Origin: Mobula birostris
Taxonomy: Eukaryota
DNA length: 64,000 bases
Reading direction: 5' to 3'
Assembly: GCF_030028105.1 (NCBI RefSeq)
Contig: NC_092383.1
Location: 86,509,921-86,573,920 of the forward strand
In this document: piece by piece, positions 29,450 to 58,900 of the stretch
Layout: each line of letters opens with the position of its first letter
Position numbering within the stretch: the first letter of the stretch is position 1
Made by a program: the position numbers and the translations under genes
The notes under the pieces: model-generated
Database searches by the model: none
Told to the model about the DNA's origin: nothing
The model's input: only the letters and a program-made list of their open reading frames with translations

Positions 29450-31350
29450 GCACAGAAGTTCTAAACTTACTCATTGAGCATTACTTTGGGATGTCCTCGG
29501 AAAAGGAAAGGGTCCCTTTCAGAATCAGGATCAGTTTATTTTCACTGTCTTCTGATGTGAAATGTGTTGTTTTGCCGTAGAAAAACTAAGTAAGTTCCTT
29601 GCCTCAGAGCATTAATGAACTCCAGTTTAACAGGTCCAGGTCCACAAGTGGGACCACTGCTTCTGGAATTATCCCCAGGCAATCAACACCCATCAGATAA
29701 CCCTGAGCTGAAGAGGGCAAGAGCTTCATCAGATTCCGGTGTTATTGTGTCACATCGTCACACAGCAGGCAAAGGTTATTATGCCATATTCCTACCTGCC
29801 GATGAGGCTTTTCAAAGTTCAAAATTCAAATTCAATTTATTATGAAGGTACATACATGTCAGCATAAACTATCCTGATTATAATGACGATAATGCAGTTC
29901 ACCTTCTCTCATTTTCAAGACCGTTTATTGTACATTCATGGGTTACAGTCACAGATCAGTACTGAGAAAAGTTACACCTTCTAGTTGCAGATTCACACCC
30001 TGATGACCAATGTAAGCTGCAATAATTTGCAGCTCTCTCATTTTATTCAGCACCCAACTTTTATTTCCATTGCTTGTTCTCCTTTAAGGCCTTTGTACAG
30101 TGACTGGAAATGTTCATGCTGTGTCTCTTTCTCACTCCATTTCGACAAAATGTGTTATGAAAAGTCAGTAACCTTGTCAAACTTGAAAATCTTCATAGTA
30201 ACTTTAGTAGCAAAGTTTGTATGTGTTGCCATATTCTATCCTCAGTTCCATTTTCTTACAGGCATTCACAGTAGAACAAAGAAGTACAATAGAATCAGTA
30301 AAAACTACACACAAGAGCTGACAAAATATAATCTGCAATGGAAGGCAAACTATGCAAATACAAAAAAATTATTGATTGTAAATATAAGACTGAGACATGA
30401 GTTGTGGAGACATTGAAAGTCAGTCCATAGGTTGTGTTCAGCGAGCACTTCACTGTTGAGCTGAGTGAAGTTATCAATACCTGGTTCAGGGGCCTGATGG
30501 CTGAGCTGTTCCTGAAGCTGATGGTTTGGGACGTTCCAAAGGGAGCAGTGAGAAGAGAGCATGTCTGGATGATGAGGATCCTGGATGATGGATCCTGCTT
30601 TCTTGTGGAAACCCTCCTTTGTCGGTGTGCTCATTGTATGGGAGGGCTTTACCTATGATCTGATCAGTCTTGACCAATTTCCACACGGACCGTCTCTGAG
30701 TCATGAATGGCTCTGTTTTTTATAGAAGCCTGTAAGTCAATATTGCCCATAAATTAGAAAACAGACAAATATCATACAATGTGGTATCCATACCTCCATG
30801 GTATTCTAATGAAGGGCATCAACTGCATATAAAACTAAAAAGGAGTAATTCTGAAAAGAGATGAGAACGAAAACTCATTATGTTATTTGTAGGAACAGAG
30901 AACATAGAACAGTACAGCACAGTACAGGCCCTTTGGCCCCCAGAGTAGTGCTAAATTGTATTCCATGATCAAGCTAATCCTTCCCTCCTACATTGCACTT
31001 AACACTCTATTTTAATACATATATGTGTGTAGCTCTCTCAGAGCTTCTTAAATGTCCCTGTTGTATCAGCCTCTATCATCAAGCCTACAGTGAATTCCAG
31101 AGAGCTGCCACTCACTGTGTGGAAAAAAAAACCTACCTCTTACATCTCCCCTAAACTTTCCTCCACTCACCTTAAATGCGTGTCCTCTGGTACTGGTCTT
31201 TGTCATGATGAGATCGGTGTGCTGCCTATCCACTCAACCAATGCTTTATACTCCACAATACTCCACGTGTGATCGAACCAGAGCTGCAATATTTCCTTGT
31301 GGCTCTTGAACTCAATCACATCAACTAGTGAAGTTTAGCACATCATACAC
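29450..31350 (+). repeat. Direct duplication, paralog of about 34300-36260
   Basis: Colinear match, e.g. aggtccagg..caagtgggaccactgc and gcagattcacaccctgatgaccaatg in both. Confidence 0.8.
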
Positions 31351-32165
31351 CTTCTTTAAGTATCTGAGAATGGGCAAAGAAATGGCTGATGGAATACAGT
31401 GTCGGGAAGTGTTTGGTCATACACTTTAGTAGAAGAAATGAAAGGATGAACTACTTTCTAAATGGAGAGAAGATACCAAAAACTGAGGCACAAAGGGACT
31501 TGAGAGTTCTTGTGCAGGATTCCCTCAAGGTTATTTTGCAGGTTGAGTCTGTGGTAAGGAAGGCAAATATGATGTTAGAATATAAAAGCAAGGATGTAAT
31601 GTTGAGACTTCATAAAATACTGGTGAGGCCTCATTTGGAGTATTACGAGCAGCTCCTCATCTTGAAAAGGATGTGCTGAAACTGGAGAGGGTTCAAAGGA
31701 ATTTCACGAAAATGATTCCAGGATTGAATGGCATTTCATATGAAGAGCATTTGATGGCTCTAGGCTGTATTCAATAGAATTCAGAAGAATGAGTGGAGAC
31801 CTAATTGAAACCTATCACATGCTGAGAGGCCTTGATAGAGTGGATGTGGAAAGGATGCTTCCTTTGGTGGGAGAGCCTAAGACTAGACAACATAGCCTCA
31901 GAATAGGGGTGTGTCAATTCAGAATGGAGATGAGGATGAATTTCAAAGTTGGAGATCGGTGAACCTCTGGAATATTTGCCACATGCAGCTGTGGAGGGTG
32001 AGTCTTCATGTATAATTAAGGCAAAGATTGATAGCTTCTTCATTGGTCAGAGCATGAAGAGATATGGGGAGAAAAGCAGGAGATTGAGGCTAAGAGCAAA
32101 ACTGGAGTTTCCATGATGAATTGGTGGAGCAGGCTCAATGAGCCAAATGGCCTAATTATGCTCCT
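31340..32165 (+). mobile_element. Degenerate CR1 3' portion
   Basis: MEYSVGKCLVIHF...LVRPHLEY. Confidence 0.8.
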
Positions 32166-33307: not shown

Positions 33308-36300
33308 TATGTCTTTTGGTTTTATGGTCTTCTTATACAGGCAACAAACTGGTGAACCTCTTCTGCAATCCCCAAGTGTGTTCTAACTGTATTTTTATAC
33401 ATTTGTAACATAAATTCTTGAGTGATTAATGCTGGCCCAATGCCATAAGCTCTCTTTACCACCTACTTTACCGTCTCCCTCGATTCCAAAGTTTGGGGAA
33501 TTATGGACTCCAAGATTTGTGCATCATTCTGGATCTGCCTTGATGATAATTCAATCAGACGTGTTTTATAGAACTTGCTGCTGAGAAAGAATAAAAATAG
33601 GAAATAGGTGTGACGTGGAAGGGTTTTTCATGCAAACTCAGCAGACAGTACCTCACTTCATTCTCTCTCCTCTCTAAAGGCCATGGCCGATCTTCGAAGG
33701 AACCTTAAAAGCTTACCCTTCTGAATTCTATTCCAGTTGTCGGTGCAATTTCAAGAGCCCTGATGGGATTTCACTTTGCTTCAGTCCAATATGAGGGGAA
33801 AACCCACTGAATGGAATTACCCATTCACAGCGGGTAAAATCCACGTCGGATCTCTTAAACCAAATCAACTCCATTTTGAAAGGAAATAGTCTGCATATGT
33901 AGACAGCTCCTGTAGTTTCTTTTTCTCATAGATTCATGGGGCACAGTTAATGTACAGGTCACATTTGTCCAAGAAGAAGACATCCCTATCTTACCTTCTG
34001 CACTTCTTTCTATGTTAGTTGAACTGTGATCTATCCAGATTCATGCTGTGCGATCCCCTGGGGCAGATGAAGTCTGAGGAGAGCTTCAGTCCAAGGGATT
34101 AGAATTCCCACATGTCACACATATTGGAGAATAAACACAGAATCAGAATCAGAATCAGGTTTAACATCACCGGCATACCGTATGTCATGAAATTAACTAT
34201 AGCAGTCCTAAACAGGAATATTTGATGATTCCCATTGGGAAGGAGAAGCTTGTTTACAGAAGGCATTTATTAGTTCTTCCCTAAATTCTGTTTTGTAAGA
34301 GAAGTAAACAACACAGAAGTTCTAACAATATCCTTTGAGAACTGCTTGAGACAGCCTGGGACAGGGAAGTGTCCATTTCAGAATCAAAATCAGCTTTGTT
34401 TTCTCTGTCTTCTGATGTAAACTGTGTTGTTTTGCAGCAGAAAAAAAATAAACAAGTTCCTTCATTCAGACTATTAACGAGCTCAGGTTTAACAGGTCCA
34501 GGTTTACAAGTGGGACCACTGCATGTGGAATTACCTGCAGATAATCAACCCTCATTAGCTAACCCTATCCTGAGGAGGTCATGAGCTCCAAACAGACTCT
34601 GGTGTTATTGGTGTTATTTGGTGTTTTTGCTTCACATCCTTGCATCGGAGGTGACGGATATTGTGCTGTATTGCTCCTTGTCAGTGAGGCATTTTAAAGT
34701 TCAAAACTCAAATTGAGTTTATTATTGAAGTGCATATATTTCAGCAAAAAAACTACTCTGGTTATAATTACAATAATGAAGTTCACCCTTTGTTCGATTT
34801 TCAGGATGTTCTATTCTATGTATGTACATTAATGGGTTACAGTCACGTGTTAGTTCTGAGAAAACTTACACCATCTATTTGCAGATTCACACCCTGATGA
34901 CCAATGCAAACTCCAATAATCAGCAACTGACTCATTTTAATCAGCACCCAGCTTTTATTTCTACTGCTGGTCCTTTGGTACATTTGTGCAATGACTGGAG
35001 AGCTTTATGCTTGAGTCTCTTTCTCACTCCATTTCTACAAAATGTGTTCTGATGGGTAAGTAATCACGCACTTTATCACAGCTCAAAAAATCCAAAGCAA
35101 ATTTATTTTCAAAATACATATAAATCACTATATACTACCCAGAGATTCATTTTCTTGCAACCTTTCATTGGAGAACAAAGAAAAACAATAGAATCAATGA
35201 AAAACTACACACAAAAACTGATAAACGACAAACATGCAAAGGAAGCCAATCTGTGCAAACACAATAAATAAGAAATTAATTAATACTGAGAACATAAAAT
35301 TGTAGAGTCCTTGAAAGTGAGTCTATAGGCTGTGTTCAGTGATCTTTGCTGTTAAGTGACCAAAGTAAACCACTCTGGTTCAGGAGCCTGTTAGCTGAAG
35401 TGTTCCTGAATCTGTGGGCTTTGGGCCTAAGGCTTCTCTGTGTCCTTGCCAGTGAGAAGAGAACATGTTTGTATGATGGACGTCCTTGATGATGGATTCT
35501 GCTTTCTCATGGCAATACATCGCTGTAGATATGCTCGTTGGTGTGCTGGGCTGGGCTTTGCCTATCAATTGATCAAATCAGTATTAACCAATCTCCATAC
35601 AGACTACCCCTGAGTAACGAATGGGTCTGTGTTTACAGAGGCCAGAAAGTAAATATTGCCGATAAATCAGAAAACACAGAAATATCACTCAATGTGTTAC
35701 CCATACCTTCATGGTATTGTAACGAAAGGATCAACTGCAAATAAAACTGAGGAAAAACAGTAATTTTGAAAAGTGGAGAGAAAGTAAACCAGTTTTGTTA
35801 TAACATAGAACATAAAACAGTTCGGCCCACAGTATTGTGCTGATCTATACTCCATGATCAATCAAATACTTCCCAAATGCATAGCCCATGAGACTCTGTT
35901 TCGTACATACATGTGTAAGCCCATCTAGGAGTCTCTAAATGTCCCTATTGTATCAGCCTCTACCCCCATGCCTGCAGTGCGTTCCAGGGACCCACCACTC
36001 TCTGTATAACAAAAAACTTACTTCTTACATCTCTGCTAAACATTCTTCCACTCACCTTAAATGGATCTCCTCTGATATTGGTCATTGTCACCATGAGGAG
36101 GGGGTGCTGGCTATCCACTCAATCTATTCTCCACAACGCTCCAAGAGTGATCAAACCAGAGTTTTCGAGAGCTGCGACATTACTTTACGGCTCTTGAACT
36201 TGATCCCCTCAACCGGTGAAGTCAAGCACCTCATTCACCATCTTTAACACCGTTTCAACTTGCTCAACAACTTTAAAGGATCTACACATTTGATCCCAAT

Positions 36301-37545: not shown

Positions 37546-37782
37546 TATCCTCTTTTATCTTAACATTACTCCTCCTACCAGATCAATTCTTTAAACTAAC
37601 ACTCTTCCATTTTTAACTCAGATCTGATGAGAAATCCCTGACCTGAAACTGGATTTAATGAAAAGTTCCTGTTATGATTTGCAGCTTCAAAACAGTGAAC
37701 GAATTCAAAGCAAACAACAGAGCTGGGAAATGAGAATCTTAGACTGTGTTTCTACTTTAAGTGAGGTGCACATGTATCACGT

Positions 37783-38007
37783 AGAAACATAGAAAATAGG
37801 TGCAGGAGTAGGCCATTCGGCCCTTCGAGACTGCACTGCCATTTATTATGATCATGGCTGATCATCCAACTCAGAACCCCGCCCCAGCCTTCCCTCCACA
37901 CCCCCTGACCCCCGTAGCCACAAGGGCCATATCTAACTCCCTCTTAAATATAGCCAATGAACTGGCCTCAACTGTTTCCTGTGGCAGAGAATTCCACACT
38001 TTCACCA
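37783..38007 (-). mobile_element. Young CR1 3' tip inserted in the Gypsy 3' LTR
   Basis: Reverse complement of the 3' end of the 38476-41696 element, including the ctatgtttc tail. Confidence 0.9.
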
Positions 38008-38373
38008 TGTTGGTGTCATGACATATCAATTCATTTCATTTACTTATGAACCATATTTAATTACTTAAACAAACAAGAATACTTAATCAAACAATATTTA
38101 CAATATTACTCGAATACTACTGAAATATTAAATACACAACACTCCTTGCAACTTAAGTATAAATTCCATCTGAATAGAAAATGCATCTCTCTATATATAC
38201 AGTATACTATATGAAGGATTTCATACTCGTGGCATATCATCCTTCCTGAAACAGAGGATCACTCTGCTTAACAGATGAGACTTGTAGCTGTGAAACCATC
38301 TTAGGTTCTGGGGCCTCCTCCACAGTGGGTTGTAAGAGCTGTTGACCCTGAGACTGCAGGAAGTGGTTCTGAC

Positions 38374-41300
38374 TGCGATGGACATCTTTCTTCTCTTTCC
38401 CATTTCTTCTTCTAGTTCATGCATTTAGTTCACTGGAGTATTCTCTTATTAATCCTTCTATTGCTCCCTTTACAAAAGGACGGGTTGCACTTGAATCCTA
38501 GGGGGACCAATATCCTGGCAGGGAGATTAGCGGGGGCTACTGAGGTGACTTTAAACTAGAATGGTTGGGGGGTGGGAATCAAATTAAAGAGGCTAGGCGT
38601 GAGGAGGTTAGTTCACAACAGGGGGATGGGAACCAGTGCAGAGAGACAGAGGGGTGTAAGGTGAGGGTAGAAGCAAAAAGTACTATGGAGAAAAGTAAAA
38701 GTGGCAGGCCGACAAATCCAGGGCAAGCATTAAAAAGGGCCACTTTTCAGCATAATTGTATAAGGGCTAAGAGAGTTGTAAAAGAGCGCCTGAAGGCTTT
38801 GTGTGTCAATGCAAGGAGCATTCGTAATAAAGTGGATGAATTGAAAGTGCAGATTGTTATTAATGATTATGATATAGTTGGGATCACAGAGACATGGCTC
38901 CAGGGTGACCAGGGATGGGAGCTCAACGTTCAGGGATATTCAATATTCAGGAGGGATAGACATGAAGGAAGGGGAGGTGGGGTGGCGTTGCTGGTTAAAG
39001 AAGAGATTAACGCAATAGAAAGGAAGGACATAAGCCGGGAAGATGAGGAATCGATATGGGTAGAGCTGCGTAACACTAAGGGACAGATGACACTGGTGGG
39101 AGTTGTGTACAGGCCACCTAACAGTAGTAGTGAGGTCGGAGATGGTATTAAACAGGAAATTAGAAATGTGTGCAATAAAGGAACAGCAGTTATAATGGGT
39201 GACTTCAATCTACATGTAGATTGGGTGAACCAAATTGGTAAAGGTGCTGAGGAAGAGGATTTCTTGGAATGTATGCGGGATGGTCTTTTGAACCAACATG
39301 TTGAGGAACCAACTAGAGAGCAGGCTATTCTGGACTGGGTTTTGAGCAATGAGGAAGGGTTAATTAGCAATCTTGTCGTGAGAGGCCCCTTGGGTAAGAG
39401 TGACCATAATATGGTGGAATTCTTCATTAAGATGGAGAGTGACATAGTTAATTCAGAAACAAAGGTTCTGAACTTAAAGAGGGGTAACTTTGAAGGTATG
39501 AGACGTGAATTAGCTAAGATAGACTGGCAAATGACACTTAAAGGATTGACGGTGGATATGCAATGGCAAGCATTTAAAGGTTGCATGGATGAACTACAAC
39601 AATTGTTCATCCCAGTTTGGCAAAAGAATAAATCAAGGAAGGTAGTGCACCCATGGCTGACAAGAGAAATTAGGAATAGTATCAATTCCAAAGAAGAAGC
39701 ATACAAATTAGCCAGAGAAAGTGGCTCACCTGAGGACTGGGAGAAATTCAGAGTTCAGCAGAGGAGGACAAAGGGTTTAATTAGGAAGGGGAAAAAAGAT
39801 TATGAGAGAAAACTGGCAGGGAACATAAAAACGGACTGTAAAAGCTTTTATAGATATGTAAAAAGGAAAAGACTGGTAAAGACAAATGTAGGTCCCCTGC
39901 AGACAGAAACAGGTGAATTGATTATGGGGAGCAAGGACATGGCAGACCAACTGAATAATTACTTTGGTTCTGTCTTCACTAAGGAGGACATGAATAATCT
40001 TCCAGAAATAGTAGGGGACAGAGGGTCCAGTGAGATGGAGGAACTGAGCGAAATACATGTTAGTAGGGAAGTGGTGTTAGGTAAATTGAAGGGATTGAAG
40101 GCAGATAAATCCCCAGGGCCAGATGGTCTGCATCCCAGAGTGCTTAAGGAAGTAGCCCAAGAAATAGTGGATGCATTAGTGATAATTTTTCAAAACTAGT
40201 TAGATTCTGGACTAGTTCCTGAGGATTGGAGGGTGGCTAATGTAACTCCACTTTTTAAAAAAGGAGGGAGAGAGAAACCGGGGAATCATAGACCGGTTAG
40301 CCTAACGTCGGTGGTGGGGAAACTGCTGGAGTCAGTTATCAAGGATGTGATAACAGCACATTTGGAAAGTGGTGAAATGATCGGACAAAGTCAGCATGGA
40401 TTTGTGAAAGGAAAATCATGTCTGACGAATCTCATAGAATTTTTTGAGGATGTAACTAGTAGAGTGGAAAGGGGAGAACCTGTGGATGTGGTATATTTGG
40501 ATTTTCAGGAGGCTTTTGACAAGGTCCCACACAGGAGATTAGTGTGCAAACTTAAAGCACATGGTATTGGGGGTAAGGTATTGGTGTGGGTGGAGAGTTG
40601 GTTAGCAGACAGGAAGCAAAGAGTGGGAATAAACGGGACCCTTTCAGAATGGCAGGCGGTGACTAGTGGGGTACTGCAAGGCTCAGTGCTGGGACCCCAG
40701 TTGTTTACAATATATATTAATGACTTGGATGAGGGAATTAAATGCAGCATCTCCAAGTTTGCGGATGACACGAAGCTGGGGGGCAGTGTTAGCTGTGAGG
40801 AGGATGCTAAGAGGATGCAGGGTGACTTGGACAGGTTGGGTGAGTGGGCAAATTCATGGCAGATTCAATTTAATGTGGATAAATGTGAAGTTATCCACTT
40901 TGGTGGCAAAAATAGGAAAACAGATTATTATCTGAATGGTGGCCGATTAGGAAAAGGGGAGGTGCAACGAGACCTGGGTGTCATTATACACCAGTCATTG
41001 AAAGTGGGCATGCAGGTACAGCAGGCGGTGAAAAAGGCGAATGGTATGCTGGCATTTATAGCGAGAGGATTCAAGTACAGGAGCAGGGAGGTACTACTGC
41101 AGTTGTACAAGGCCTTGGTGAGACCCCACCTGGAGTATTGTGTGCAGTTTTGGTCCCCTAATCTGAGGAAAGACATCCTTGCCATAGAGGGAGTACAAAG
41201 AAGGTTCACCAGATTGATTCCTGGGATGGCAGGACTTTCATATGAAGAAAGACTGGATGAACTGGGCTTGTACTCGTTGGAATTTAGAAGATTGAGGGGG

Positions 41301-42160
41301 GATCTGATTGAAACGTATAAGATCCTAAAGGGATTGGACAGGCTAGATGCAGGAAGATTGTTCCCGATGTTGGAGAAGTCCAGAACGAGGGGCCACAGTT
41401 TGAGGATAGAGGGGAAGCGTTTTAGGACCGAGATTAGGAAAAACTTCTTCACACAGAGAGTGGTGAATCTGTGGAATTCTCTGCCACAGGAAACAGTTGA
41501 GGCCAGTTCATTGGCTATATTTAAGAGGGAGTTAGATATGGCCCTTGTGGCTACGGGGGTCAGGGGGTATGGAGGGAAGTCTGGGGCGGGGTTCTGAGTT
41601 GGATGATCAGCCATGAGCATAATAAATGGCGGTGCAGGATCGAAGGGCCGAATGGCCTACTCCTGCACCTATTTTCTATGTTTCTATGTTTCTATGTTTA
41701 CAACCTGATCTGCCCTCTAGGTTTCCTCATCCACAACCTGTGGCAAATCCTCTGTTTTTGTCTCTCCTTTGACTCTATTTCTTTTTGGCCTTCCTTTCAT
41801 CGATCTGGTCTTTGGTCTTTGGTCTTTGCATCTACTTTTACAAGCAATTTTTTCTCCTACTTGACATTCCTGCAACAACCATAAAACACACAGAGTAGGT
41901 TTCAGTTCTTTACAGGCACAAAAGCCAAATGCTTGCAACTTTCCTGAAGATCCTTAAACTCTCCTCCAGCTTAAAACCAAGCCACATTTCACAAGTATCT
42001 GACTGATTAACTTATCAGAAGCTTTCTCAGACATGTTGCCTATAAAAACTGTTGTAGTCCAACTAGTGCTTTCATCATTTTCACTCTTCCTCTGAGCAGC
42101 GTGGCCCTTCCTTACAGGAATATGCTTTCCAATCAGAGGTATAGAAGTTGGAACCAACAC
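38374..42160 (-). pseudogene. RBM25: Processed RBM25 fragment (N-terminal RRM region), split by the CR1 insertion; pieces 42160-41697 and 38468-38374
   Basis: VLVPT..IGKH...ENDE..TTTVFIGNMSEKASDKLISQILVKCGLVLSWRRV*GSSGKLQAFGFC...DEET*RADQVVKGAIEGLIREYSSELNA matches my recollection of vertebrate RBM25 (TTTVFVGNISEKASDMLIRQLLAKCGLVLSWKRVQGASGKLQAFGFC...IKGAIEVLIREYSSELNA). Intronless, with stops and frameshifts. Confidence 0.9.
38476..41696 (+). mobile_element. Near-intact CR1 LINE: ORF1 tail plus complete ORF2 (APE endonuclease + RT) with one nonsense codon
   Basis: GLHLNPRGTNILAG (ORF1 esterase end); GITETW, GDFN, SDH, FADD motifs; TAG at 40197-40199; (ttctatgt)n tail; 7-bp TSD tttacaa at 38469-38475 and 41697-41703. 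Confidence 0.96.
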
Positions 42161-42671
42161 ATGTTTGTTCTCAGTTAGGCAATGGTTTATGATGTATGTC
42201 AAAGAGGCAGTTGTGGCATTATCTAGTACCTTTCTTAATTTGGTTTCAGTCGGCTTCATTGCAAGGGATGTGGCATGCAATTGGTGGATGGATCTCCAAT
42301 CGAGTAGCAGTTGTCTCAGCAAATGAAGTCCCCACAATGCTGGTCCTTCTGTTTTTACCACATACAAGCTCAATGTGGCTCACAGTTCTGCATGTCATTC
42401 CCACAGGAGTTATCCTTTTACCAGTATAAGTTCTCAGTTGAATATTTGCAGGCTTCACTTTGGTATCTTTCAAATGCTGTTTAAACTCATTTTGTGGGAT
42501 GACTGAAACAGCTGAACTAGTGCCTAATTCCATTTTACTAATTTGTCGTTTACTCCTGGTGTAAGCCACATTGCTTGTTTGTTGTTAATTTTCATACAGT
42601 AAAGCTCAAGGCTACACAGTCCTGTGTCACTCTCATCATAATCAGATTTTTCATCTACAGCATGCAGATTT

Positions 42672-44117
42672 GAAACATAGAAAATAGGTGCAGGAGTAGG
42701 CCATTCGGCCCTTCGAGCCTGCACTGCCATTTATTATGATCATGGCTGATCATCCAACTCAGAACCCCGCCCCAGACTTCCCTCCATACCCCCTGACCCC
42801 CGTAGCCACAAGGGCCATATCTAACTCCCTCTTAAATATAGCCAATGAACTGGCCTCAACTGTTTCCTGTGGCAGAGAATTCCACAGATTCACCACTCTC
42901 TGTGTGAAGAAGTTTTTCCTAATCTCAGTCCTAAAAGGCTTCCCCTTTATCCTCAAACTGTGACCCCTCGTTCTGGACTTCCCCAGCATCGGGAACAATC
43001 TTCTTGCATCTAGCCTGTCCAATCCCTTTAGGATTTTATACGTTTCAATCAGATCCCCCCTCAATCTTCTAAATTCCAACGAGTACAAGCCCAGTTCATC
43101 CAGTCTTTCTTCATATGAAAGTCCTGCCATCCCAGGGATCAATCTGGTGAACCTTCTTTGTACTCCCTCTATGGCAAGGATGTCTTTCCTCAGATTAGGG
43201 GACCAAAACTGCACACAATACTCCAGGTGTGGTCTCACCAAGGCCTTGTACAACTGCAGTTGTACCTCCCTGCTCCATCCTCTCCCTATAAATGCCAGCA
43301 TACCATTCGCCTTTTTCACCGCCTGCTGTACCTGCATGCCCACTTTCAATGACTGGTGTATAATGACACCCAGGTCTCGTTGCACCTCCCCTTTTCCTAA
43401 TCGGCCACCATTCAGATAATAATCTGTTTTCCTATTTTTGCCACCAAAGTGGATAACTTCACATTTATCCACATTAAATTGAATCTGCCATGAATTTGCC
43501 CACTCACCCAACCTATCCAAGTCACCCTGCATCCTCTTAGCATCCTCCCCTCCTCACAGCTAACACTGCCGCTCAGCTTCGTGTCATCCGCAAACTTGGA
43601 GATGCTGCATTTAATTCCCTCATCCAAGTCATTAATATATATTGTAAACAACTGGGGTCCCAGCACTGAGCCTTGCAGTACCCCACTAGTCACCGCCTGC
43701 CATTCTGAAAAGGTCCCGTTTATTCCCACTCTTTGCTTCCTGTCTGCTAACCAATTCTCTATCCACATCAATACCTTACCCCCAATACCATGTGCTTTAA
43801 GTTTGCACACTAATCTGTGTGGGACCTTGTCAAAAGCCTTTTGAAAATCCAAATATACCACATCCACTGGTTCTCCCCTATCCACTCTACTAGTTACATC
43901 CTCAAAAAATTCTGAGATTCGTCAGACATGATTTTCCTTTCACAAATCCATGCTGACTTTGTCCGATGATTTCACCACTTTCCAAATGTGCTGTTATCAC
44001 ATCTTTGATAACTGACTCCAGCAGTTTCCCCACCACCGACGTTAGCCTAACTGGTCTATAATTCCCTGGTTTTTCTCTCCCTTTTTTTTTAAAAAGTGGG
44101 GTTACATTAGCCACCCT
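42672..44117 (-). mobile_element. 5'-truncated young CR1 inserted in the Gypsy gag-protease linker
   Basis: Near-identical to the 3' 1.45 kb of 38476-41696; flanks rejoin as gcagattagtgc. Confidence 0.94.
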
Positions 44118-44262
44118 TAGTGCTTTTTCGAAACTGCAAGTTGACTTTTTAGCTTTTTTGCTTCCTAGTACCATGCATTTATTTTTGTCTGGCTGGCAAG
44201 TTCTTTGTATGTGTCCTACTTTGTTGCACTTTCTGCAAGTTTCAGCTTTAAACCTGTATTTG

Positions 44263-44975
44263 TGTCACAATGGGGTGCTGGGAATGGACCCAAATACAAG
44301 AAACAGACACTGAAGTACAAGGAACAGGACTTGACTAGAGTAGGGACGTGACAGGATACAGACAAGGAGCAGGGACAAGAACGCAGACTAGGGCTTGGAT
44401 CCCAAGCCAGAGACTGGACAAGGACCCAAAACCTGGGTTTTGTCTCGGACTCAGGCCCCAGAACCAGGCATGGACATGACATGACTGCAGGACTGGAGGT
44501 TGGGGTCTTGAGGCTTGAGGCTTGGAGACAGGCTAGGGGTCTTGAGGCTGGAGGCTTGGAGACAGGCTAGGGGTCTTGGTCTTGAGGCTTGGAGACAGGC
44601 TTTGGGTCTTGAGGCTTGGAGACAGGCTTGGGGTCTTGGTCTTGAGGCTTGGAGACAGGCTTGGAGTCTTGGTCTTGAGGCTTGGAGACAGGCTTGGGGT
44701 GCTGGTGTTGAGGTTTGGGGTCTTGGTCTTGAAGTGAGCAGGCAGAGAGTCAGGCAAGGTATCCAGGCAGAGAGTCAGGCAAGGGGGAAACAACAGGGAG
44801 GGGAGCAGGACAGTCCAGCAGGGAATTCCTGGTTTGTAGAAGTATTTATGTCTCAGCCCCAAAACGAGAAACATGTGACCCAAACAGAAACTGGGGAATA
44901 TCAGAAACCCTGGAACGAGGAACCATGGACCGGACCGTGAAGCGGAACACGGACTTTACGGACCGGACTATGACA
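44263..44975. mobile_element. Solo LTR-like element (713 bp) inserted in Gypsy gag
   Basis: tgtca...tgaca termini and 5-bp TSD atttg (44258-44262, 44976-44980). Confidence 0.8.
44502..44732. repeat. Minisatellite of 27-33 bp units (ggtcttgaggcttggagacaggct...)
   Basis: Direct reading; about six full units inside the solo LTR. Confidence 0.92.
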
Positions 44976-46622
44976 ATTTGTTTGGTGAACATGAGCCCCT
45001 GACACAATGGTAACACAATTTGTTCAGCCAGGCCAGTTTATGTTTGGACAATGTAATTTGTCTACACTCACTTTCATTCCTGATTGCAATTTAATTGTAT
45101 CTCTGTGTGTGGTTTCCATTGAAACAGCAATTTTACCTGCTCTCTTGAATGTAAGTTGTGCTACAGTTAGGAATCATTTGTGAATGCTTTCTTGAAAGAT
45201 TCCACAAAATAAATAATCTCTCAGTACATCTTTAAGCCTATTGTTGAGGTGACAATGGTCAGGCAATCTCTTCAATTCAGCCATGAACACTGAAGTGGGC
45301 TCCCCTTCTTTTAGATTTTGCTTATGAAACCTAAAGCTTTCTGCAACAAACAGTGGCATTGTTTCTAAATGTTCTTGAGAATATTAGCAAAGCTAATTTC
45401 TGCTGGTTTGTTTGGAGCAGTCAAACTTTGAAGCAAACTATATGCCTTTAAAGGCAAAGTACTTGGAAAAATTTGCACTCATTTCTTGATGTCTATTACA
45501 TTTTCTTCAAGCTAGTGTTGAATTAGTTCAGTATACATATTCCCCTGCCACGTACATGATTTCCCAATATGTCTGAGCGGCGTGGAGGGAAATTTTCCGC
45601 CAAATGGAAATTCCAGATGCGACCTAACAACGACGATACACATTCCAATTATCTGCTATGGAATCAGACAAGCCAATCTTTCTGATGTAGCCATCTGTGT
45701 CTGCTGTTTTAAATGATGATTATCGCCCAGTACTCACTCTTTATGAATGGATGAATTCTTCTGATATCTGACTTTTTTAATACTTGATCGTGTTCTCCCT
45801 TCAGAAGAACATGTGCTGTGCTGTTTTTTAATTAAACTTGACCATCTTTCTATGTGCTGGGCTACGATTTTTTTAACTTGCAGTGTTTTTTTTTAGTTCA
45901 AATATTTCTCTGCGTTTCAACAGGTTGACAGCTACCTAACATTCATTTTAAAGATACGTCATCGCCAATGTATGTTTTGTAACTTCAAAACATCAAACTA
46001 ATTCAAAAGGAAATACGGGAGTCGGGGAATATTCTTCACTTCATTCTTCACTTCAAGTGAGGCATGTATGTATCATGTAAATTAAATATATCTTCATTCT
46101 AGCTCACATGTAACCCATAATTTATTATTTTCACACACACACAAACACACAAGATGACTCATATAGAACTGAAATACTAAATACAGCTTCCACTAGTAGG
46201 GGAGCCAAGGACAAAAGGGCAGTCTCAGAATGGACGGACATCCCTTCAGAACAGAAATAAGGAGGAATATCCTTCATCAGAGGTGGTGAATCTGTGGAAT
46301 TCATTATTACAGATGGCTGTGGAGACCAAGTCATTGGGTATATTCATTAGTGAGGGCATTAAAGCTTACAGGGAGAAGGCAGGAGAATAGAGTTTACTGG
46401 GATAATATATCAGCTATGATAGAATGCCGAAGCAAACTTTACGGGCCAAATGGCCTTACCCTGCTCCTGTGTTTATGGCCCTATGGTCTTGATTCCATCA
46501 AGAAAATCCAGGAACCTGAATGTGATCTGTTCACCATGTTTGAATTTTCATTCTCAACTAAGCCAAGAGGATAAATTAGTTATTAGCATCAACAATTTGT
46601 TAATAAGAATATTAGCTGATTG

Positions 46623-48700: not shown

Positions 48701-48861
48701 CAGCATTATCTGAACCCTGAAGCTTAAAGTTCAAAGTGGATTTATTACCAAAATACATATCTGTCATCATATACAACTCTGAGATTCAATTTCTTGTGGG
48801 CATACTCAGTAAATCTATAGATTAATAACCACAACAGAATGAACAGAATGACCACAACAGA

Positions 48862-50279
48862 ACAAAGGTTCTGAACTTAAAGAGGGGTAACTTTGAAGGT
48901 ATGAGACGTGAATTAGCTAAGTTAGACTGGCAAATGACACTTAAAGGATTGACGGTGGATATGCAATGGCAAGCATTTAAAGGTTGCATGGATGAACTAC
49001 AACAATTGTTCATCCCAGTTTGGCAAAAGAATAAATCAAGGAAGGTAGTGCACCCATGGCTGACAAGAGAAATTAGGGATAGTATCAATTCCAAAGAAGA
49101 AGCATACAAATTAGCCAGAGAAAGTGGCTCACCTGAGGACTGGGAGAAATTCAGAGTTCAGCAGAGGAGGACAAAGGGCTTAATTAGGAAGGGGAAAAAA
49201 GATTATGAGAGAAAACTGGCAGGGAACATAAAAACGGACTGTAAAAGCTTTTATAGATATGTAAAAAGGAAAAGACTGGTAAAGACAAATGTAGGTTCCC
49301 TACAGACAGAAACAGGTGAATTGATTATGGGGAGCAAGGACATGGCAGACCAATTGAATAATTACTTCGGTTCTGTCTTCACTAAGGAGGACATAAATAA
49401 TCTTCCAGAAATAGTAGGGGACAGAGGGTCCAGTGAGATGGAGGAACTGAGCGAAATACATGTTACTAGGGAAGTGGTGTTAGGTAAATTGAAGGGATTG
49501 TAGGCAGATAAATCCCCAGGGCCAGATGGTCTGCATCCTATAGTGCTTAAGGAAGTAGCCCAAGAAATAGTGGATGCATTAGTGATAATTTTTCAAAACT
49601 CGTTAGATTCTGGACTAGTTCCTGAGAGTTGGAGGGTGGCTAATGTAACCCCACTTTTTAAAAAAGGAGGGAGAGAGAAACCGGGGAATTATAGAACGGT
49701 TAGCCTAACGTCGGTGGTGGGGAAACTGCTGGAGTCAGTTATCAAAGATGTGATAACAGCACATTTGGAAAGTGGTGAAATGATCGGACAAAGTCAGCAT
49801 GGATTTGTGAAAGGAAAATCATGTCTGACGAATCTCATAGAATTTTTTGAGGATGTAACTAGTAGAGTGGATAGGGGAGAACCAGTGGATGTGGTATATT
49901 TGGATTTTCAAAAGGCTTTTGACAAGGTCCCACACAGGAGATTAGTGTGCAAACTTAAAGCACACGGTATTGGGGGTAAGGTATTGATGTGGATGGAGAA
50001 TTGGTTAGCAGACAGGAAGCAAAGAGTGGGAATAAACGGGACCTTTTCAGAATGGCAGGGGGTGACTAGTGGCGTACCGCAAGGCTCAGTGCTGGAACCC
50101 CAGTTGTTTACAATATATATTAATGACTTGGATGAGGGAATTAAATGCAGCATCTCCAAGTTTGCAGATGACACGAAGCTGGGTGGCAGTGTTAGCTGTG
50201 AGGAGGATGCTAAGAGGATGCAGAGTGACTTGGATAGGTTGGGTGAGTGGGCAAATTCATGGCAGATGTAATTTAATGT
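48862..50279 (+). mobile_element. Young CR1 internal fragment in a gene D intron
   Basis: Near-identical to 39462-40879; own stops at 49501 and 50269; lacks the 3' tail. Confidence 0.94.
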
Positions 50280-52974
50280 GTTTTTCCATTATCCATTTCA
50301 ATAATCTACTTACAAGGTAAAAACATATATCAACTTTCATGTCAAAAGTTATTGCAGAATATTTGGAGAGATTAGTTTATCTTGAACTCCTGGGATTAAA
50401 ACATGTTGTCGAGCGTTGGTTGTACTACTGGTTGTGAAAATGAAAACAATATTCTCACAGGCATTCAGTACAAGTAAATGAAATTATAAATTTCCCCTGA
50501 ATTATCTCTCATATGGCGGGGGGGGAGGCAATCATAGCACCAGCAATGAGAACATTGTACATTTAAGCAGGACTGGATCAAGTGACTTACCTTGCAGTTG
50601 ATACTGTTGTAAATGTTTCACATGAATATTCACGTCCTGTTGAGGCAAGGAAAGAAAATTCAGTCTCGCATGTTTACCCAGTGCAGTCAAGCAAGAGTAC
50701 ATGATTGGCAGGTGGAAACTCATGGTTTGAGTAAAAGGCTGATTGGTTACAGGGAGGTGAGTAATTTCTGTTTCTTGTGCATATTTGAACACCTGTTGCT
50801 GGGGAAATTACGAGGCTTGAGTTGGAGGGTTTGCAAACCATAATCCTAAGCAGACAGAAGTGGAAGTTCCAGCCAGGCAATTGACATCTGCCAGCTCTGG
50901 GAGATCTGTTGTTGGGGCCACAACACCCACCGGAAAGACATACACATCTCTGCACTGAGTGTATGTGGAGATATTGGACCAAGTACAGTTGTTGATACAA
51001 CAGGATAATGCTTCTGTTCTCAATGAAAAAACAACTTGTATAATGCAAGATGCTGGAGGAACTCAGCAGTTCAGGCTGCATCTATGGAAAGAATAAACAG
51101 TCGACATTTCAGACCAAGACCTTTCTGATGAAGGATCTTTGCATGAAAAATTGACTGTATACTTCTTTGCATAGATGCTGCCTGGCCTGATGAGTTCTTC
51201 CAGCATTTTGTATATGTTGTTCTTGTTCTCCAGCATCTACAGAATCTCTTCTGTTCCTGTTTTAATAGTGGGATGACAAATGTCATTGAACATCATAGAG
51301 TTATACAGTATGGGAACTAGCCCTTCAGCTCAATTCATCCACACTAACCAGCATGAGCTAGTCCCATTGAGTCTACTCCACCATTTCAGCACAGCTGATC
51401 CATTTCCCTTTCAACCTCGTTTTCCTGCCTTCTCCCCATTACCTTTCATGTCCTGACTAATCAAGAACTTATCAACCACAGCCATAAAGGTATCTGGTGA
51501 TCTGACCTTCACCACCACCTGTGGCAACAAATTCCTGTCTCACCTCCCTCTGGCTAAAGAGTTTCCTCCTCATCTCTGTTCCAAATGGACATCACTCTCT
51601 TTTGACTCTGTGCCCTCTGGGTTTTGACTTTCCCACCAATGCAAACATCCTCTTCACATCCACTGTATAAAGGCCTTTCACCATTCGATCAGCTTCAATC
51701 AGATCTCCCCTCATTCTTCTAAATTCCAGTGAGTACAGGTCCTGAGCCTTCAATTGCTATTCATATGATAATCTTTTCATTCCCGGAATCGTTCTTGTGA
51801 ACCTCCTTTGAACTATCTCCAATGCCAACACATCTTATTTTAGATAAAAGGCCCAGAAATACTCACAATATGGACGTCCCTGTAAAGGACAGGCCTTCAT
51901 TAATCAGAGGATTGAGATCAAGAGTTGTGAGGTAATTGTGTAATACCAGTGGTCACCATCTCCTGGCAGAATATCTATTGCAACCCTCTGCCTTCTGTAA
52001 GAAAACCAATTTCTATTATTAGAATATCTCAAATGAAGAGGCACTGTAACAAGATAAGGATCAGGTAATTTAAAATTGGATTTAAATTCACAATCCTTAG
52101 AATCCTACACCTGGATGGTGGTGGAGGCTGGATCAGTGGGGATCTTTAAACAGAAAGTACCGTAGATATTTTTTGATAAAGATCAGGAAATGGCGAACTG
52201 TAGGAAAATGATGCAGAAGAGCTAAGAAAGCCTAGTACAGATCAGCCAAGATGATATTGAATAGTGGAGTAGTCTTGAGACACCAAACAGCCTGCTTGGT
52301 TTCTTGAGTTCAGTCCTTACACCTATTGCATGTGACTTCCATTGCTTCTTTAGCCTGTATAATTCTCTCTATTTGCCACGAAACAAACTACTGGAAACTG
52401 TTTATAAATCCAGAAGGTGTGAGTTTGGGTATTTGCTGGTTCTCAAAGATGAGAAAATCTCAGTCAGCAACTAGAAATGTCAGCAATTTAGACGCAAAGC
52501 CACCATGCACAGCAAGAGCAGGCTGCAGGCAGGAAACTCTCTGGTGAGGGACTCACTTCTCAGCTACCGAACAGGGCATGCCGTTCCCTGCAAGATTTGT
52601 CACAATGCAGCTTAAAGAACATAACAGATGAACACTCCCACCCACTAACCCACCCCTCCACAACCCCCACCACCACTACTTTATCATTTCATGTCAGGCA
52701 CCTCAGGTAGATACACTATTGTGCCTAGCAGCAATTTACTTACATACAACCAATGTATATAAACAATTTTATGTATTTATATGTATCATGTTTATTAACG
52801 ATTGTGTTCTGTACCTTATTGTTATTTTTTATGGGTGCATTAGATCTAGAGTAACAATTAGTTTGTTCTCCTTATATTTGCATATTGGAAATGATATTAA
52901 GCAATCTTGAATCTTGAAGACGGTACATGATACTCAATCAATCTCCCTAATGATTCGCACCCTCCACCACTTAC

Positions 52975-53295
52975 CAGTGCCAGTGAACTGAATCACAAAG
53001 CTGCAGTTGTCTCCTCTGTTGTCGATGGACACGTTCACTATTTCACTAGACTTTGCTCCATGAGTATTGGAGGCAGTGCAGTAATATTGATAGTGTTGGT
53101 GTTTGAAGGATTGACAACGTAGATCCAGTTGACTGTTTTCAGAGACTTTTGAATCCACAGATGAGATATTTTCATGCCATGTGTACTGAATGGGAAGGGA
53201 TCCCTGGACAGACTCACAGGACACTGACACGGAGCCCCCAACACACACGATATTTGCAGAAGACAGATATCGAAGCACAGGAACAGACACTGGTT
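52975..53295 (-). CDS. Gene D exon: C2-type Ig domain (C2c class, membrane-proximal)
   Basis: Acceptor tctttcccacag|AACCA, donor ACTG|GTAAGT; 321 nt, open: VSVPVLRY...SCESVQGSLPIQYTWHE...YYCTASN. Confidence 0.9.
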
Positions 53296-53609
53296 CTGTG
53301 GGAAAGAATCAGTCAACATATTGAAATCAATATGTGGGCATCTGAACTCCACATCAATCCCAGATGCCTGAACCCCGCGTCTGCCACTATTCCAAAACAC
53401 AGCAGGAGTCCAGATCAGAACAGCAGCAATGACAGTGAGGATGTGATGTGTCAGCGTGAAAATCAGGGTACAATCTCTCACAGCTACAAGGAGACAGTCA
53501 CCACTGGTGTTTGAAAAAAAATAATGCAAGCGTTGTTTGAAGGTGATAGTTTAATGGAAACTTGTGAGACAAGCTCTTTAGCTACAATGATTGTGGCGAC
53601 TCCCTGTAA

Positions 53610-55345
53610 CACACAGAAATTACTGGAGGAACTCAGCAGGCCAGGGAGCACCTACAGAAAAGAGTACAGTCGACATTTTGGGCCAAGGTTTTTCAGCAGA
53701 ACAGGAAGATGAGGACTCAGAGTCTGAGGGTGGGAGGAGGGGAGGGAGAAACGCAGGGTGATAGGTAAAACCAGTAGGGGGAAGCATAAAGTGACAGGGA
53801 GGGGAGAGGTAAAGGAAGGAGTTGGGAAGTTGATTGGTGAAAGAGATACAGGGCTGGAGAAAGCAGAATCGAATAGGGAAGGACAGAAGGCCATTGAGAA
53901 AGAAAAAGGGGGAGGAGCACCCCGAGGGAAGTGATGGGCAGGCAAGAAGATAATGTGAGAGAGGGAAATGGGAATGGGCAATAGAGAAAGGGGGGGGGAG
54001 GAACATTACTGGAAATTCGAGAAATCAATGTTCATGCCATCAGGCTGGAGGCTACACAAACGGAACAAAAAGTGTTGCTCCTACAACCTGAGTGTGGCCT
54101 CATCACAGCAATAGAAGAAGCCAGAGACTGACAGGTTGGGATGGGATTGGGAAGTGGAACTAAAATGGGTGGACACTGCAAGGTCCCGCTTTTTCTGGTG
54201 GATGGAGTGTATATGCTCGGCAAAGTTGTCTTCCATTCTACTTTGGGTCTCACTGATATACAAGAGGCCACACCGGGAGTACCGGATACAATAGATGACC
54301 CCAACAGACTCACAGGTGAAGTGTCGCCTCGCCTGGAAGGACTGTTTTGGACCCTAAATGGTAGTGAGGGAGGAGATGTAGGGGCAGATGTAGCAGTTGT
54401 CCGCTTGCAAGGATAAATGTCAGGAGGGAGTCTGTGGGGAGGTGTGAATGGACATGGGTGTTGTGCAGGAAGTGATCCCTGTAGAAAGCAGAAAGTGAGG
54501 GGAAAGGAAAGATGTGCCTGGTGACGGGATCCCATTGGAGATGGCAGAAGTTTCAGAGAAATATGTGATGGAGTTGCAGCTTAACGGGGTGGTAGGAGAC
54601 AACAGGAGGAACCCTAACACTGATGGGGTGGTGGGAAGATAGGGTGAGGGCAGACGTGTGTGAAATTGAAGAGATGTAGTTGAGGGCAGTGTTGATAGTG
54701 GAGAAAGGGAAGCCCCTTTCTTTCAAGAAGGAGGACATCTCTATCCTCCTGGAGTGAAAAGCCTCATCGTGAGAGCAGATGCAGTACAGAAAGAGAAATT
54801 GAGGGAAGGGGTTTGGTATTTTTACAAGTAACAGGGTGGGAAGAGGTATAGTCCAAGTAGCTGCAAGAGTCATTGGGGTTTGTAGCAATCTTCAGAGATA
54901 AACTGTCTCCTGAGATAGAGACAGACAATTTGAGGAAGGGAAGGGAGGTGCTGGAAAAGGACCTGGAAATTTGGAGTCAAAGTTGATGTAGTCAATTAGA
55001 TCGGCATGGGTGCAGGAAGCAGCACCAATGCAGTCATCAACGTAGCATTGGAAACGTGAGGGAGAGACACCAGTATAGACTTGGAACGTAGATTGATCCA
55101 TGCAGCCAACAAAAAGGCAGGCATAGCTGCGACCCATGCAAGTACCCATAGCTATTGTTTGAAGGAAGTGGGAGGAGCCAAAGGAGAAATTATTGAGAGT
55201 GACGATAAGTTCCGCAAGATGGAGGAGAGTGGTGATGGAGGGGAACTGGTTGGCTCTGGTGTCCAGAAAGCAGCAGAGACCTTTGAAGCCTTTCTGGTGG
55301 AGGATAGAGGTATGTAGGGAATGTACATGCATAGTGAAAATAAGA
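53610..55345 (-). mobile_element. Penelope-like element (RT C-half + GIY-YIG endonuclease + terminal repeat)
   Basis: LNNFSFGSSHFLQT.AMGTCMG.SYACLFVG...YVDDCIG, then YISETQSRMEDNFAEH. Short terminal pieces of the family recur at about 2040-2420, 14870-15300 and 21650-21960. Confidence 0.85.
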
Positions 55346-55606
55346 TGCTCGGGGCCAGAGAACCGGAAATCAGGGTGGCATTTCATACAGTTCAGAGGCA
55401 GGAAAATGTACTGAGCCTTTCCACTGGAAATTGTTGGCCAGTCAGTGGGACGGACAACATGTGGGGTTCCCAAACCTTGCCCACTCCCCACAGGGCTCTG
55501 CACTGCTGAGGAGCCTCAGGATATCCATGCTTCTCTGACACTTCCTCGAGCAAATATGGATCAGACATTTCACTGGACACATAAAGGTAATCAAGGAGAA
55601 ACCTAC

Positions 55607-55920
55607 CGTCAGATACTTGTAGATACACGTCAAACACTGGATGATTGCCAGATGTTGCAATTCCACATCTGTAAACTCCTGTATCTTGAGAGACAAGATT
55701 CTCCATAGTAACAGTAAATATTCCCTGGGATGTGTTATCTCTGATTGTTATTCTTCCATACTGCTCATTTGTCCCATTTGTATTCACTAATGATGTGCAT
55801 TGGCGACCCCACATGCGGCACAAATACTTTGTGTGTGAACGGTACTTTGGTCATTGTGACAATCGATTGTGATCGCTCTTCCCACAACTCCTCTTACTTT
55901 GTTTTCTGCCCATAAAGCAC
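55607..55920 (-). pseudogene. Gene D disabled Vb exon
   Basis: Close paralog of 5746-6060. Acceptor cag>tgg, and 314 nt long (1-nt loss after DCHN); donor GACG|GTAGGT intact. Confidence 0.85.
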
Positions 55921-58900
55921 CCAAAACTGAGGGAGAAATTCTTCTGAAAATGGACAGGTAAAATTCAAATTTACACAAGCAGATTCAAGATTGCTTCATG
56001 TCATTTCCTCTATACAAATATAAAGGAGAACAAAACCATTGTTCCTCCGGATCTGAAGCAGCACAGAAAAAGCAAATGATAAAGAAAGCAATAATAATAA
56101 AAAGAGATGTTTTATTTAAAGCTGTCAGTGTGTTCTAAGGAATCTACCACACCCTCAATTGGTGTAATTGAATTCCACATTGTCTGAAAAATGCTACCGC
56201 ATCGTCCCTCATCACAAGATCACGGCTCTTCACAAGTAATGATTTTTATTTGATTGGAGTCATCATTATCACTGCCCAGTGATGTCTCAGTGTGTTTCAA
56301 CAATTCTGAGTCAATAGATTACTGATCCAGTCCTATTCCAGGCAGGTGAGCACAAGATCGGTAGTGGATAAATTACCAGAGGTAGTTCTCTGAGACAGGG
56401 TCTACCTGAATTTGCAAAGGCATGATCTGGTTGTGGATAGTCAACGTGATTTTGTGCATGGGAAATCTACTCTCAAGAAATTGACAAGGTTTTTTTTTGA
56501 AGGGATGAAGAAACGGACTGATGAGGGCAGGAGCAGTAGCATGTAGCACATGGAGTTTAGCAAGGCCTTTGAAAACATCTCACATAGCAGACAGATTTGT
56601 ATTGTGAGATCACATGGTAAGCTAGTTGGTTGGATACAGAATAGGCTGAAGGGATCTCGAAAGAGAACTGGTGTTCAGCCCCATTACTCTGTGCTAGCCA
56701 GATTCCCCCACATGAGCCCAACCCGTCTGCCTGCATTTGATCCATCTCCCTCTCTTCTCACCAGAGCCATCTATTCAAGTTGAATTTCAAGTTTAATTGT
56801 CATTCAACCATATATGGATACTGCCAAATGTAACAGCGATATTCCTGGACAAGGACGAAAAATACAGTAACAACGGTGAAACATAGCAGAAGGCTCATAT
56901 AAAATAGCAGTCAAGAAAAAATTATATGTAGTTTGTTTATGGTACACATAATTTCATAATTAGTTTACTTTGAATATTGAACTTGGAAAGTGGCTAATGG
57001 AATGACTGATGTATGGAACTCAGGCAGTGTGAAGTAATGAATTTTGGGAAGTGGAACAAGGACAAAACGTACACAGCAGAGAACCAGGTTTGCAACTACA
57101 CAGGTCCCTGAATGTGGCAACACAGGTGGACAAACTGCTGAACAAGGAATATGACCAGTTGCCTTCATTGGATGGGGCATTAAGTAGAGCTGGGATGGCA
57201 TGTTACAACTATAAAGGACATTGACAAGACCTCATCTCGACTACTCTGTGCAGTTCCAGAGGAAGAATGTGATTAATTAGAGAAGGTACAGAAAGCATTC
57301 ACAAAGATGCTTCTGAAACTGGACGGTCTGGGTTTTGGATAGGCTGGGACAGTTTTCCCTGAAGTGAACACAGCTGAGGTTTAAAAATTAAGAGGGGCAA
57401 AGATATGCTGGATAATCACAGTCTTTATCCCAACTTTGGGGAGTCGAAAACTAGAGAGCCAAGACTGACGGTGAGGGTGGAAAGTCTTTGAGGGCCTGGA
57501 GGGGCAGTGTTTTCCACACAGAGCAGTGTGTATGTGAAAAGGCTGCCAGAAGAAGTACTAGGGGGTGGGAATAAATTCACCTTTAAAATACTTTTGGACA
57601 AGTTCATGAAATTTGCTGAAGTTAGTCCATAGCCACAAAGTGAGTCATCACTGCAGCACATTAATTGCAGGCCACAGACTGAGTTCAGCGCAGAAGTGAG
57701 TAAACCTTGTTGACAAACTAATTAAACACCAGCCCATCCCCTTGCCTATGACATGCATTCCTTTAGTTTTTCGCACAGGTTTCGAAGGTATATTATCTTT
57801 GTCACAATCACGAAATACAGCAGCCTTGTTCATATCAGTATAGAAGGAATGGGTTCCCTTCTCATTTCTGAAGGTGAGGAAGGTACTTTAACCAGCAACC
57901 TGAAACTCAGTTTCAGTAGTCACAATGTTAATTGGGCTGCTCAGGAAATCCTAAAGCTGGTGATGATCATAACACAATGAGATCATAAGACATAGGAGAA
58001 TTAGGCCATTCGACCTATATCGACTGCTCTGCCATTCCATCTTGGCTGATTTATTATCCCTCTCAATCTTATTCTCTTGCCTTTTCCCTGTAACCTTTAA
58101 TGCCCTCACTACTCAAAGACCAATCAAACTCAGCTTTAAATAAACCCGATGACTCGGCCTCAACAGCCATCTGTGGTAATAAATTCCACAGATTCACCAC
58201 CATCTGGCTAAAGAAATTCCTCCTCATCTCAGTTCTAATGCTGTCTGTTAGGGGTCTGTACTTCTTCCACGTAGAATGCATAGGCTTTCCCCGGCTGCTC
58301 CAGTTTCCTCCCACAGTCCAAAACCATGTTAATTGGTCCCTGTTAATAGTCCTGTGATTATGTTAAAATTATCAGCTTTGTCGAGGGTTAATGGGGCAGC
58401 ATGGCTTGAAGGGCCAGAATGGCCTATTCCGGGCCAAATCTTTAAATAAATAAAAAGAAAGAATGTTCTTGTAAGGAGCAAGCCCAGGTACATTACAAGA
58501 TCAAGAGCTCATTTTATGATACTAGGAGACCATCCAATAGTTTCACAACAGTGAGAAAGAAGCTGTCCTTGAAGTTTGTAGTACATGCTTTCAGACTTTT
58601 GTAATTTCTGCCCGATAGGAGGTGAGAGGAAGAGAATATGTCAGTGAAAGTTGGATCTTCAATTAGATTGGCTGCTTTACCAAGTCAGTGAAAAGTATTA
58701 AAAACAATAAAAAATATAAATTACTGCAAATATCCAAAAAGTATAATTTTGTATGTATGCACACTTGTGTGTAACAATCAGGATGTGGGGAGAAGCTGAG
58801 GTAAATATCTAGAGATTCCACTGCACTCACAGTTGAAGGATCTAATAAAGGAAAGATTGCATTTGCTTAAAACCAGCTCTCCTATAAAAATCAATTCCCG

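Follow-up and report, generated by a model that had tools for sequence, protein, structure and literature searches.

The element described here is a decayed copy belonging to a non-autonomous LTR family of Gypsy type, whose reverse transcriptase (RT), RNase H and most of the integrase have been swapped for a spliced piece of RBM25. The family is real, ancient and genome-wide, and it represents a known mechanism operating at an unusual scale. We consider it likely, with a probability of about 0.92, that the family arose by a single template switch, spread to roughly a thousand sites by means of the enzymes of its relatives, and carried the RBM25 piece as a neutral passenger. Across the family we observed splicing over five to eight exon junctions, sequence common to host and element at the two switch points, a single 5′ junction, LTR pairs in dispersed copies, and considerable age.

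Organization of the element in the window

The window is the whole stretch of 64,000 nucleotides that was analyzed. Within it the element reads, on the minus strand, as protease region, RBM25, integrase tail and 3′ LTR, the order that had been proposed from the letters alone. Its parts, listed from the 5′ end of the element, are as follows.

45969..46185, minus strand: 5′ LTR; first ~5 nt not recognizable (start damaged), ends CA; K2P 0.25-0.34 versus the 3′ LTR pieces
45957..45968, minus strand: sequence like a primer-binding site, TGG-type, directly after the 5′ LTR; same motif there in other copies
44976..45694, minus strand: gag, decayed, with stops and frameshifts; 71-75% identity to dispersed and pol-bearing copies
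44263..44975, minus strand: solo-LTR-like insertion of another family in gag, TG...CA, containing 33-bp tandem repeats; its 5-bp duplication, CAAAT, is perfect; a later event
44125..44262, minus strand: gag zinc knuckle, CCHC (Pfam zf-CCHC E=0.001, below cut-off)
42672..44120, minus strand: 5′-truncated CR1 LINE, a later insertion, 93-99% like the CR1 at 38476-41696; 5′ end approximate
42219..42671, minus strand: protease region, decayed, up to the 5′ switch; aligns with pol-bearing copies as far as 42212
42212..42218, minus strand: 5′ switch point, 7-nt microhomology TGCCACA common to the Gypsy pol frame and the host exon end; in frame
41697..42218, minus strand: RBM25 piece A, spliced, including the RRM; exon ends at 42209, 42161, 41990, 41932 and 41765 from host exon alignment
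38476..41696, plus strand: CR1 LINE splitting the RBM25 piece, a later insertion with endonuclease and RT domains; 7-bp duplication TTTACAA at 38469-38475 and 41697-41703
38387..38475, minus strand: RBM25 piece B, short form; 3′ switch 9-mer GAGAAGAAA at 38395-38387
38150..38386, minus strand: C-terminal tail of the integrase plus 3′ untranslated sequence; alignable with the region downstream of the integrase in pol-bearing copies L126 and L127
38142..38149, minus strand: polypurine tract; other copies have one in the same position
37670..38141, minus strand: 3′ LTR, interrupted by a CR1 3′ fragment at ~37784-38007

Four later insertions, three CR1 pieces and one solo-LTR-like element, thus interrupt the window copy, and a Pfam search of its protease and RBM25 frames gave no match. 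The original prediction held in outline and needed correction in several details. It had placed an RBM25 segment of about 560 nt from 42160; the segment is there, but it starts at 42218 and the window piece is ~610 nt, the corrected start taking in another exon, of 48 nt, and 10 nt of the one before it. Excising the CR1 at its TTTACAA duplication had been expected to restore the frame. The duplication is present and dispersed copies are contiguous across the site. Stops and frameshifts also lie upstream of the CR1; the copy is indeed disabled. The integrase tail, given as SEPLPAV...EEAPEP, is likewise present, but in the window copy its two ends lie in different frames.

Three young CR1 copies in the window (38476-41696, 42672-44120 and 48829-50280) are 93-100% alike in their aligned arms; in the longest, one stop interrupts ORF2. 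On the minus strand, V-set and C2-type immunoglobulin exons recur at 2900-11200 and 52900-62800. The element therefore appears to sit within a tandem cluster of Ig-superfamily receptor genes, which we presume to be pIgR/CD300-like. The window locus is one of five 99-100% identical copies at G000:C18:86.23-86.66 Mb, spaced 104-110 kb (~105 kb) apart. Judging from these sequences, the C18 array is a recent tandem amplification of an Ig-receptor unit, and the five copies of the element in it appear to be the only ones to stem from this later duplication. An older tandem duplication (30000-31400 and 34900-36250, ~4.9 kb spacing, 72-88% identity) is also found in the window.

The RBM25 insert and its switch points

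A PWI search of the host genome gave 5 matches, one of them of RBM25 type (G000:C1:154.487 Mb). Upstream of this PWI exon we mapped nine host RBM25 exons with AG/GT borders (C1 154,445,012-154,473,477). The RBM25 piece of the window matched the exons at C1:154.445-154.463 Mb free of introns, with 81% identity over 42218-41697 and 96% over 38473-38420. When a host exon was used as a protein query, 289 proteins were returned; most of the named ones among the 120 listed were RBM25, and the best among the matches listed was a shark RBM25 (89%). A full relative of the window copy had an RRM_1 Pfam match, while a PDB search with one host exon returned weak RRM matches only. Two matches to the tail and LTR of the element family were seen near G000:C1 154.379 and 154.406 Mb, 35-65 kb upstream of the first mapped RBM25 coding exon.

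The proposal that the RBM25 capture was intronless proved correct. The window copy spans five exon junctions without an intron and the longest copies span eight, over ~1.07 kb; these five to eight intron-free junctions rule out a DNA-level capture, whether of a single exon or with introns retained. The eight junctions were contiguous in 100, 134, 138, 136, 126, 17, 16 and 28, respectively, of 140 distinct copies (160 gathered minus 20 duplicates), a set biased toward conserved copies because they were picked by similarity or exact patterns.

One 48-nt RBM25 exon, at G000:C1:154450900-154450947, is present both in the host gene and in the captured mRNA. A shark RefSeq isoform and one protein without a name contain it as well, one isoform having 4 extra residues, and it was absent from the four bony-vertebrate RBM25 proteins displayed. 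In the 39 of 122 proteins to which a pattern check could be applied, it picked out a single insertion, which was unrelated. On these comparisons, the exon is possibly specific to cartilaginous fishes.

To find the parent element we took the protease end and required the next base to differ from the chimera's, which gave 399 matches. Of 30 examined, 25 ran on into RT, 3 were chimeras and 2 were neither. In the pol-bearing copy L126, a weak protease match (E=0.086) is followed by RVT_1, RT_RNaseH_2, Integrase_H2C2 and rve in order, then by the tail and LTR. The parent accordingly has the Ty3/Gypsy domain order of protease, RT, RNase H and integrase, with no env. Bel/Pao elements have the same order, and we take the single CCHC knuckle and the RT_RNaseH_2 match to favor Gypsy. 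Uninterrupted pol-bearing copies contain ~2.8-3.2 kb of pol between the switch points. This sequence is missing from the chimeras, in which the insert stands in place of the internal ORFs rather than interrupting a continuous one.

Microhomology, which had been suggested as a feature to look for, was found at both switch points and was far above random. At the 5′ switch, TGCCACA (7 nt) is common to the host exon end and the parent, and the fusion keeps the gag-protease frame. At the 3′ switch, GAGAAGAAA (9 nt) is common to the host mRNA and the parent, and the fusion is out of frame, as the host frame does not match that of the integrase. The chance of sharing at least 7 nt at a random switch is p ~0.0005-0.0008, and of sharing at least 9 nt p ~0.00003-0.0001. 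Twenty pol-bearing copies were fetched, and in the 10 that keep the relevant stretch GAGAAGAAA was exact in 3, had one mismatch in 5 and two in 2; the frequency of the 5′ 7-mer among pol-bearing copies is not independent because the selection pattern contains it. The marks of a LINE-made retrocopy that had been named beforehand, a poly-A tail and a target duplication flanking the insert, were looked for at both switch points, and neither was seen.

Three pol-deleted relatives without RBM25 (L116, L128 and L132) return to element sequence at this same purine-rich site ahead of the integrase tail, where L132 has chimera-like sequence. This site may be a recurrent re-entry point.

Copy number, age and selection

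The original prediction held that multiple copies would show the chimera to have been mobilized, and we found a genome-wide family of about a thousand copies rather than a single event. The first similarity search reported 2,636 candidates, and all 40 that were scored were near full length. Exact matching in the genome gave 122 matches for the 24-nt junction and 388 for an internal 18-mer, one of these being the host exon; reversed control patterns gave 0. By mark-recapture (three contigs: 33, 95, 11 shared; 11 recaptures), we estimated 1,100 ± 450 dispersed chimeric copies, a figure that is likely low because conserved copies get caught twice. Protease sequence lay upstream of the insert in 25/25 dispersed copies examined. 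Among 40 copies picked by the RBM25 18-mer alone, 35 had the protease upstream, 34 had the tail downstream and 39 had at least one of them. Chimeras make up ~34% of the copies keeping this protease end (23/30 of 228; 3/30 of 399).

The LTRs of other copies are ~255 bp long, TG...CA, and were paired in 19 of the 44 copies examined. Flanking sequences at the LTR ends were unrelated between dispersed copies. Both outer ends could be called in 13 of 80 copies, and 4 of these 13 had 5-bp target duplications matching at 4 or more of 5 bases (2 exact), versus 0.6% of mismatched pairs; the same flank test gave no signal for duplications of 4 or 6 bp. There are pol-bearing relatives whose LTR, gag and tail are the same, and the chimera was probably mobilized in trans by them.

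The K2P distance between paired LTRs had a median of 0.23 and a range of 0.15-0.37 (19 of 44 copies examined). Copies were 87% like the host and differed from each other by 18%, and there was no sign of recent activity in the sample, because none of 122 copies was closer to another than 10%. Contigs bridging the 5′ junction by at least 31 bases on each side were found under five other organism labels, from five studies. Among the pieces shown, the junction was bridged in 3/8 for coded label B, 6/8 for D, 7/8 for F, 6/8 for G and 7/8 for H.

We could measure 111 copies for length: 64 were short, having lost the Arg/Glu-repeat exons, 31 were intermediate, 15 were long (some of them inflated by insertions) and 1 was anomalous. 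The window copy belongs to the short form. The long form is ancestral, since the host-like state at two marker sites was found in 11/15 long versus 1/64 short copies. Only 1 of 14,160 pairs of subfamily markers passed correction in a linkage test of 140 copies; because the markers assort almost freely, subfamilies look mosaic and are not cleanly definable from this set. Frequent recombination between co-packaged RNAs would account for such assortment.

A dN/dS below 1 had been offered as a possible sign of function, an expectation that was not borne out, and no protein-level selection was found. In 140 copies, the rare changes comprised 3446 nonsynonymous (N), 1061 synonymous (S) and 235 stops, against 469 N and 131 S sites, which is neutral, and the ratio was equal in the RRM core and its flanks. 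Changes common to many copies were mostly amino-acid-changing, and 50 copies had a 1-nt deletion in common; the amino-acid changes date from the element's own history, as the shark protein has the host residue at six such sites. Near-fixed differences from the host numbered 16 S and 3 N, or 18 S if two CpG-eroded sites are counted. Comparison with the shark protein assigned one of the 3 N to the host and two to the element. The simplest reading of the silent differences is that they represent host drift since the capture. In a clock test this reading fitted when silent sites of the host were given the rate of the copies (P=0.26), and fitted poorly at a slower rate (P=0.02). The insert was thus probably neutral, the 16-18 S versus 1-3 N near-fixed differences being placed in the host lineage on the strength of this clock. 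A codon-position test of gag-protease in 117 chimeric versus 33 pol-bearing copies found no periodicity, even in the pol-bearing control. We did not find the intact frame and purifying selection of a domesticated retrogene, the window copy being broken and N:S neutral among copies, and the RBM25 insert is most likely without present function.

In three runs presumed to be RNA (library type guessed, one flagged as probable DNA), the stretch is covered by contigs of the family, one of those listed (X22) spanning the junction; we give these runs no weight as evidence of expression. A 611-nt contig from a chimeric copy with an internal deletion, L092, recurred in runs X21-X23 (presumed RNA), was deeper than the other listed pieces in all three, and may be one transcribed copy.

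Origin of the family and its relation to known captures

We propose a single origin, in which a reverse transcriptase would have switched between element RNA and co-packaged RBM25 mRNA at two short shared sequences. The chimera would have spread using the RT and integrase of pol-bearing relatives, its shorter, cis-complete RNA simply being a good substrate. The purine-rich Arg/Glu-repeat part was likely lost stepwise by deletion and recombination, giving the dominant short form, and the RBM25 piece was most likely just carried along. All copies would then have decayed, the window copy gaining its four insertions and later being multiplied fivefold within the ~105-kb tandem duplication. The switch and the mobilization in trans are not observable in dead copies, and we infer both as likely events.

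It is conceivable, though unlikely, that the origin was the same and the captured piece was useful while the element was active, a Gag-protease-RRM protein or a host-like RNA having helped it to be packaged or exported or to evade silencing. The fusion at the 5′ switch keeps the reading frame, and all 23 of the chimeric copies picked by their Gypsy side alone kept the RRM part, while most copies have deleted the Arg/Glu part. Chimeras also account for about a third of the family, and the clear subfamily changes all lie outside the RRM core, where none was found. This gap is weak evidence, however, because the changes are few and clustered, with no clear synonymous ones in the core either. The 3′ fusion, moreover, does not keep the frame of the integrase tail, the copies have amino-acid changes and a frameshift in common immediately beyond the core, and repetitive purine-rich sequence is expected to delete unaided. 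Only 17/112 copies keep the core free of stops and indels. We hold it equally doubtful that the element gained from the host RRM, as an in-frame product or as host-like RNA, in reaching a third of the family, and that its thousand or so look-alikes may supply sense or antisense RNA acting on the RBM25 transcript.

Far less probable is an RBM25 retrocopy made by a LINE that landed in the Gypsy element, with pol then deleted and the product mobilized. CR1 LINEs are abundant and recent here, and a poly-A tail and target duplication could have been lost to subsequent deletions, but this account requires two extra events, and the insert does not look like a LINE-mediated processed pseudogene: it is an internal fragment that ends far short of the PWI exons, has no tail, and has both ends in host-element microhomology. 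Nor were 3′-anchored RBM25 retrocopies evident, because the PWI search had given a single RBM25-type locus. We give almost no weight to segmental duplication or an assembly artifact as the source of the many copies. Such a duplication does explain the five near-identical C18 copies, the window one among them, and is refuted for the rest of the family, whose members lie on many contigs, differ pairwise by 18% (minimum 10%, 122 copies), have unrelated flanks at their LTR ends with 5-bp duplications, and have their junction in other organisms' runs as well. A single template switch followed by spread in trans is the reading that we favor.

In the capture of oncogenes by retroviruses, a retroelement takes up host mRNA in a vertebrate. 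HERV-K captured FAM8A1 in a similar way, as cited in PMC5131818, with microsimilarity at the joints. The RBM25 family differs from both in being a Gypsy element and not retroviral, and comparable germline amplification is not described for them in the accounts cited.

The mechanism of LTR-mediated retroposition in animals was described by Tan et al. (2016, Genome Res, PMC5131818), whose retrocopies have microsimilarity at both switches (median 6 bp), are young, and number few per vertebrate, with two fly retrocopies at more than one site. The RBM25 family has the features of an LTR-mediated retrocopy: a spliced insert, replaced pol, microsimilarity, no poly-A or duplication, and both LTRs. As in the cases described there (PMC5131818), a partial intronless mRNA without poly-A stands in place of internal ORFs between LTR parts, there was further non-autonomous spread, and a purine-rich re-entry site was favored; the microsimilarity of 7 and 9 nt compares with their median of 6 bp. 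Unlike those cases, the RBM25 family is ancient, has about a thousand copies, makes up about a third of its parent family, occurs under multiple organism labels and has deletion subfamilies.

The Pxyfem retrocopies of PxyMasc in the diamondback moth are 11 tandem, W-linked copies making silencing RNAs, with a role that has been shown (bioRxiv 10.1101/2022.04.04.486979). They too join a spliced host mRNA fragment to LTR-element gag at microsimilarity and are multi-copy. The RBM25 family, in contrast, is dispersed, has ~100 times more copies, is ~13% diverged from the host and has a candidate role only. Maize Bs1 is an LTR element with transduced sequence from several host genes, cited as protein-encoding (PMC5131818, PMC7264820). 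It resembles the present family in bearing host gene sequence and differs in being from a plant and in holding several genes, versus one gene without an intact product here. Our literature search found no RBM25-carrying element and no vertebrate LTR family of this size carrying host mRNA; subscription journals, Repbase and Dfam lay outside the search and may bear on novelty. The main text of a ray-genome preprint makes no mention of RBM25 or retrocopies.

The family makes of the inferred last step of LTR-mediated retroposition, re-mobilization of the chimera, a large natural experiment in a vertebrate, in which a single capture was followed by a burst that can be dated, by some thousand copies and by deletion subfamilies. 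It is also a fossil of an ancient RBM25 splice form that includes the 48-nt exon of shark-type proteins, and its insertions, where shared, can serve as markers for the clade in which it occurs. In these genomes, the annotation of genes, the masking of repeats and RNA-seq counts for RBM25 can all be confounded by the thousand or so RBM25-like fragments.
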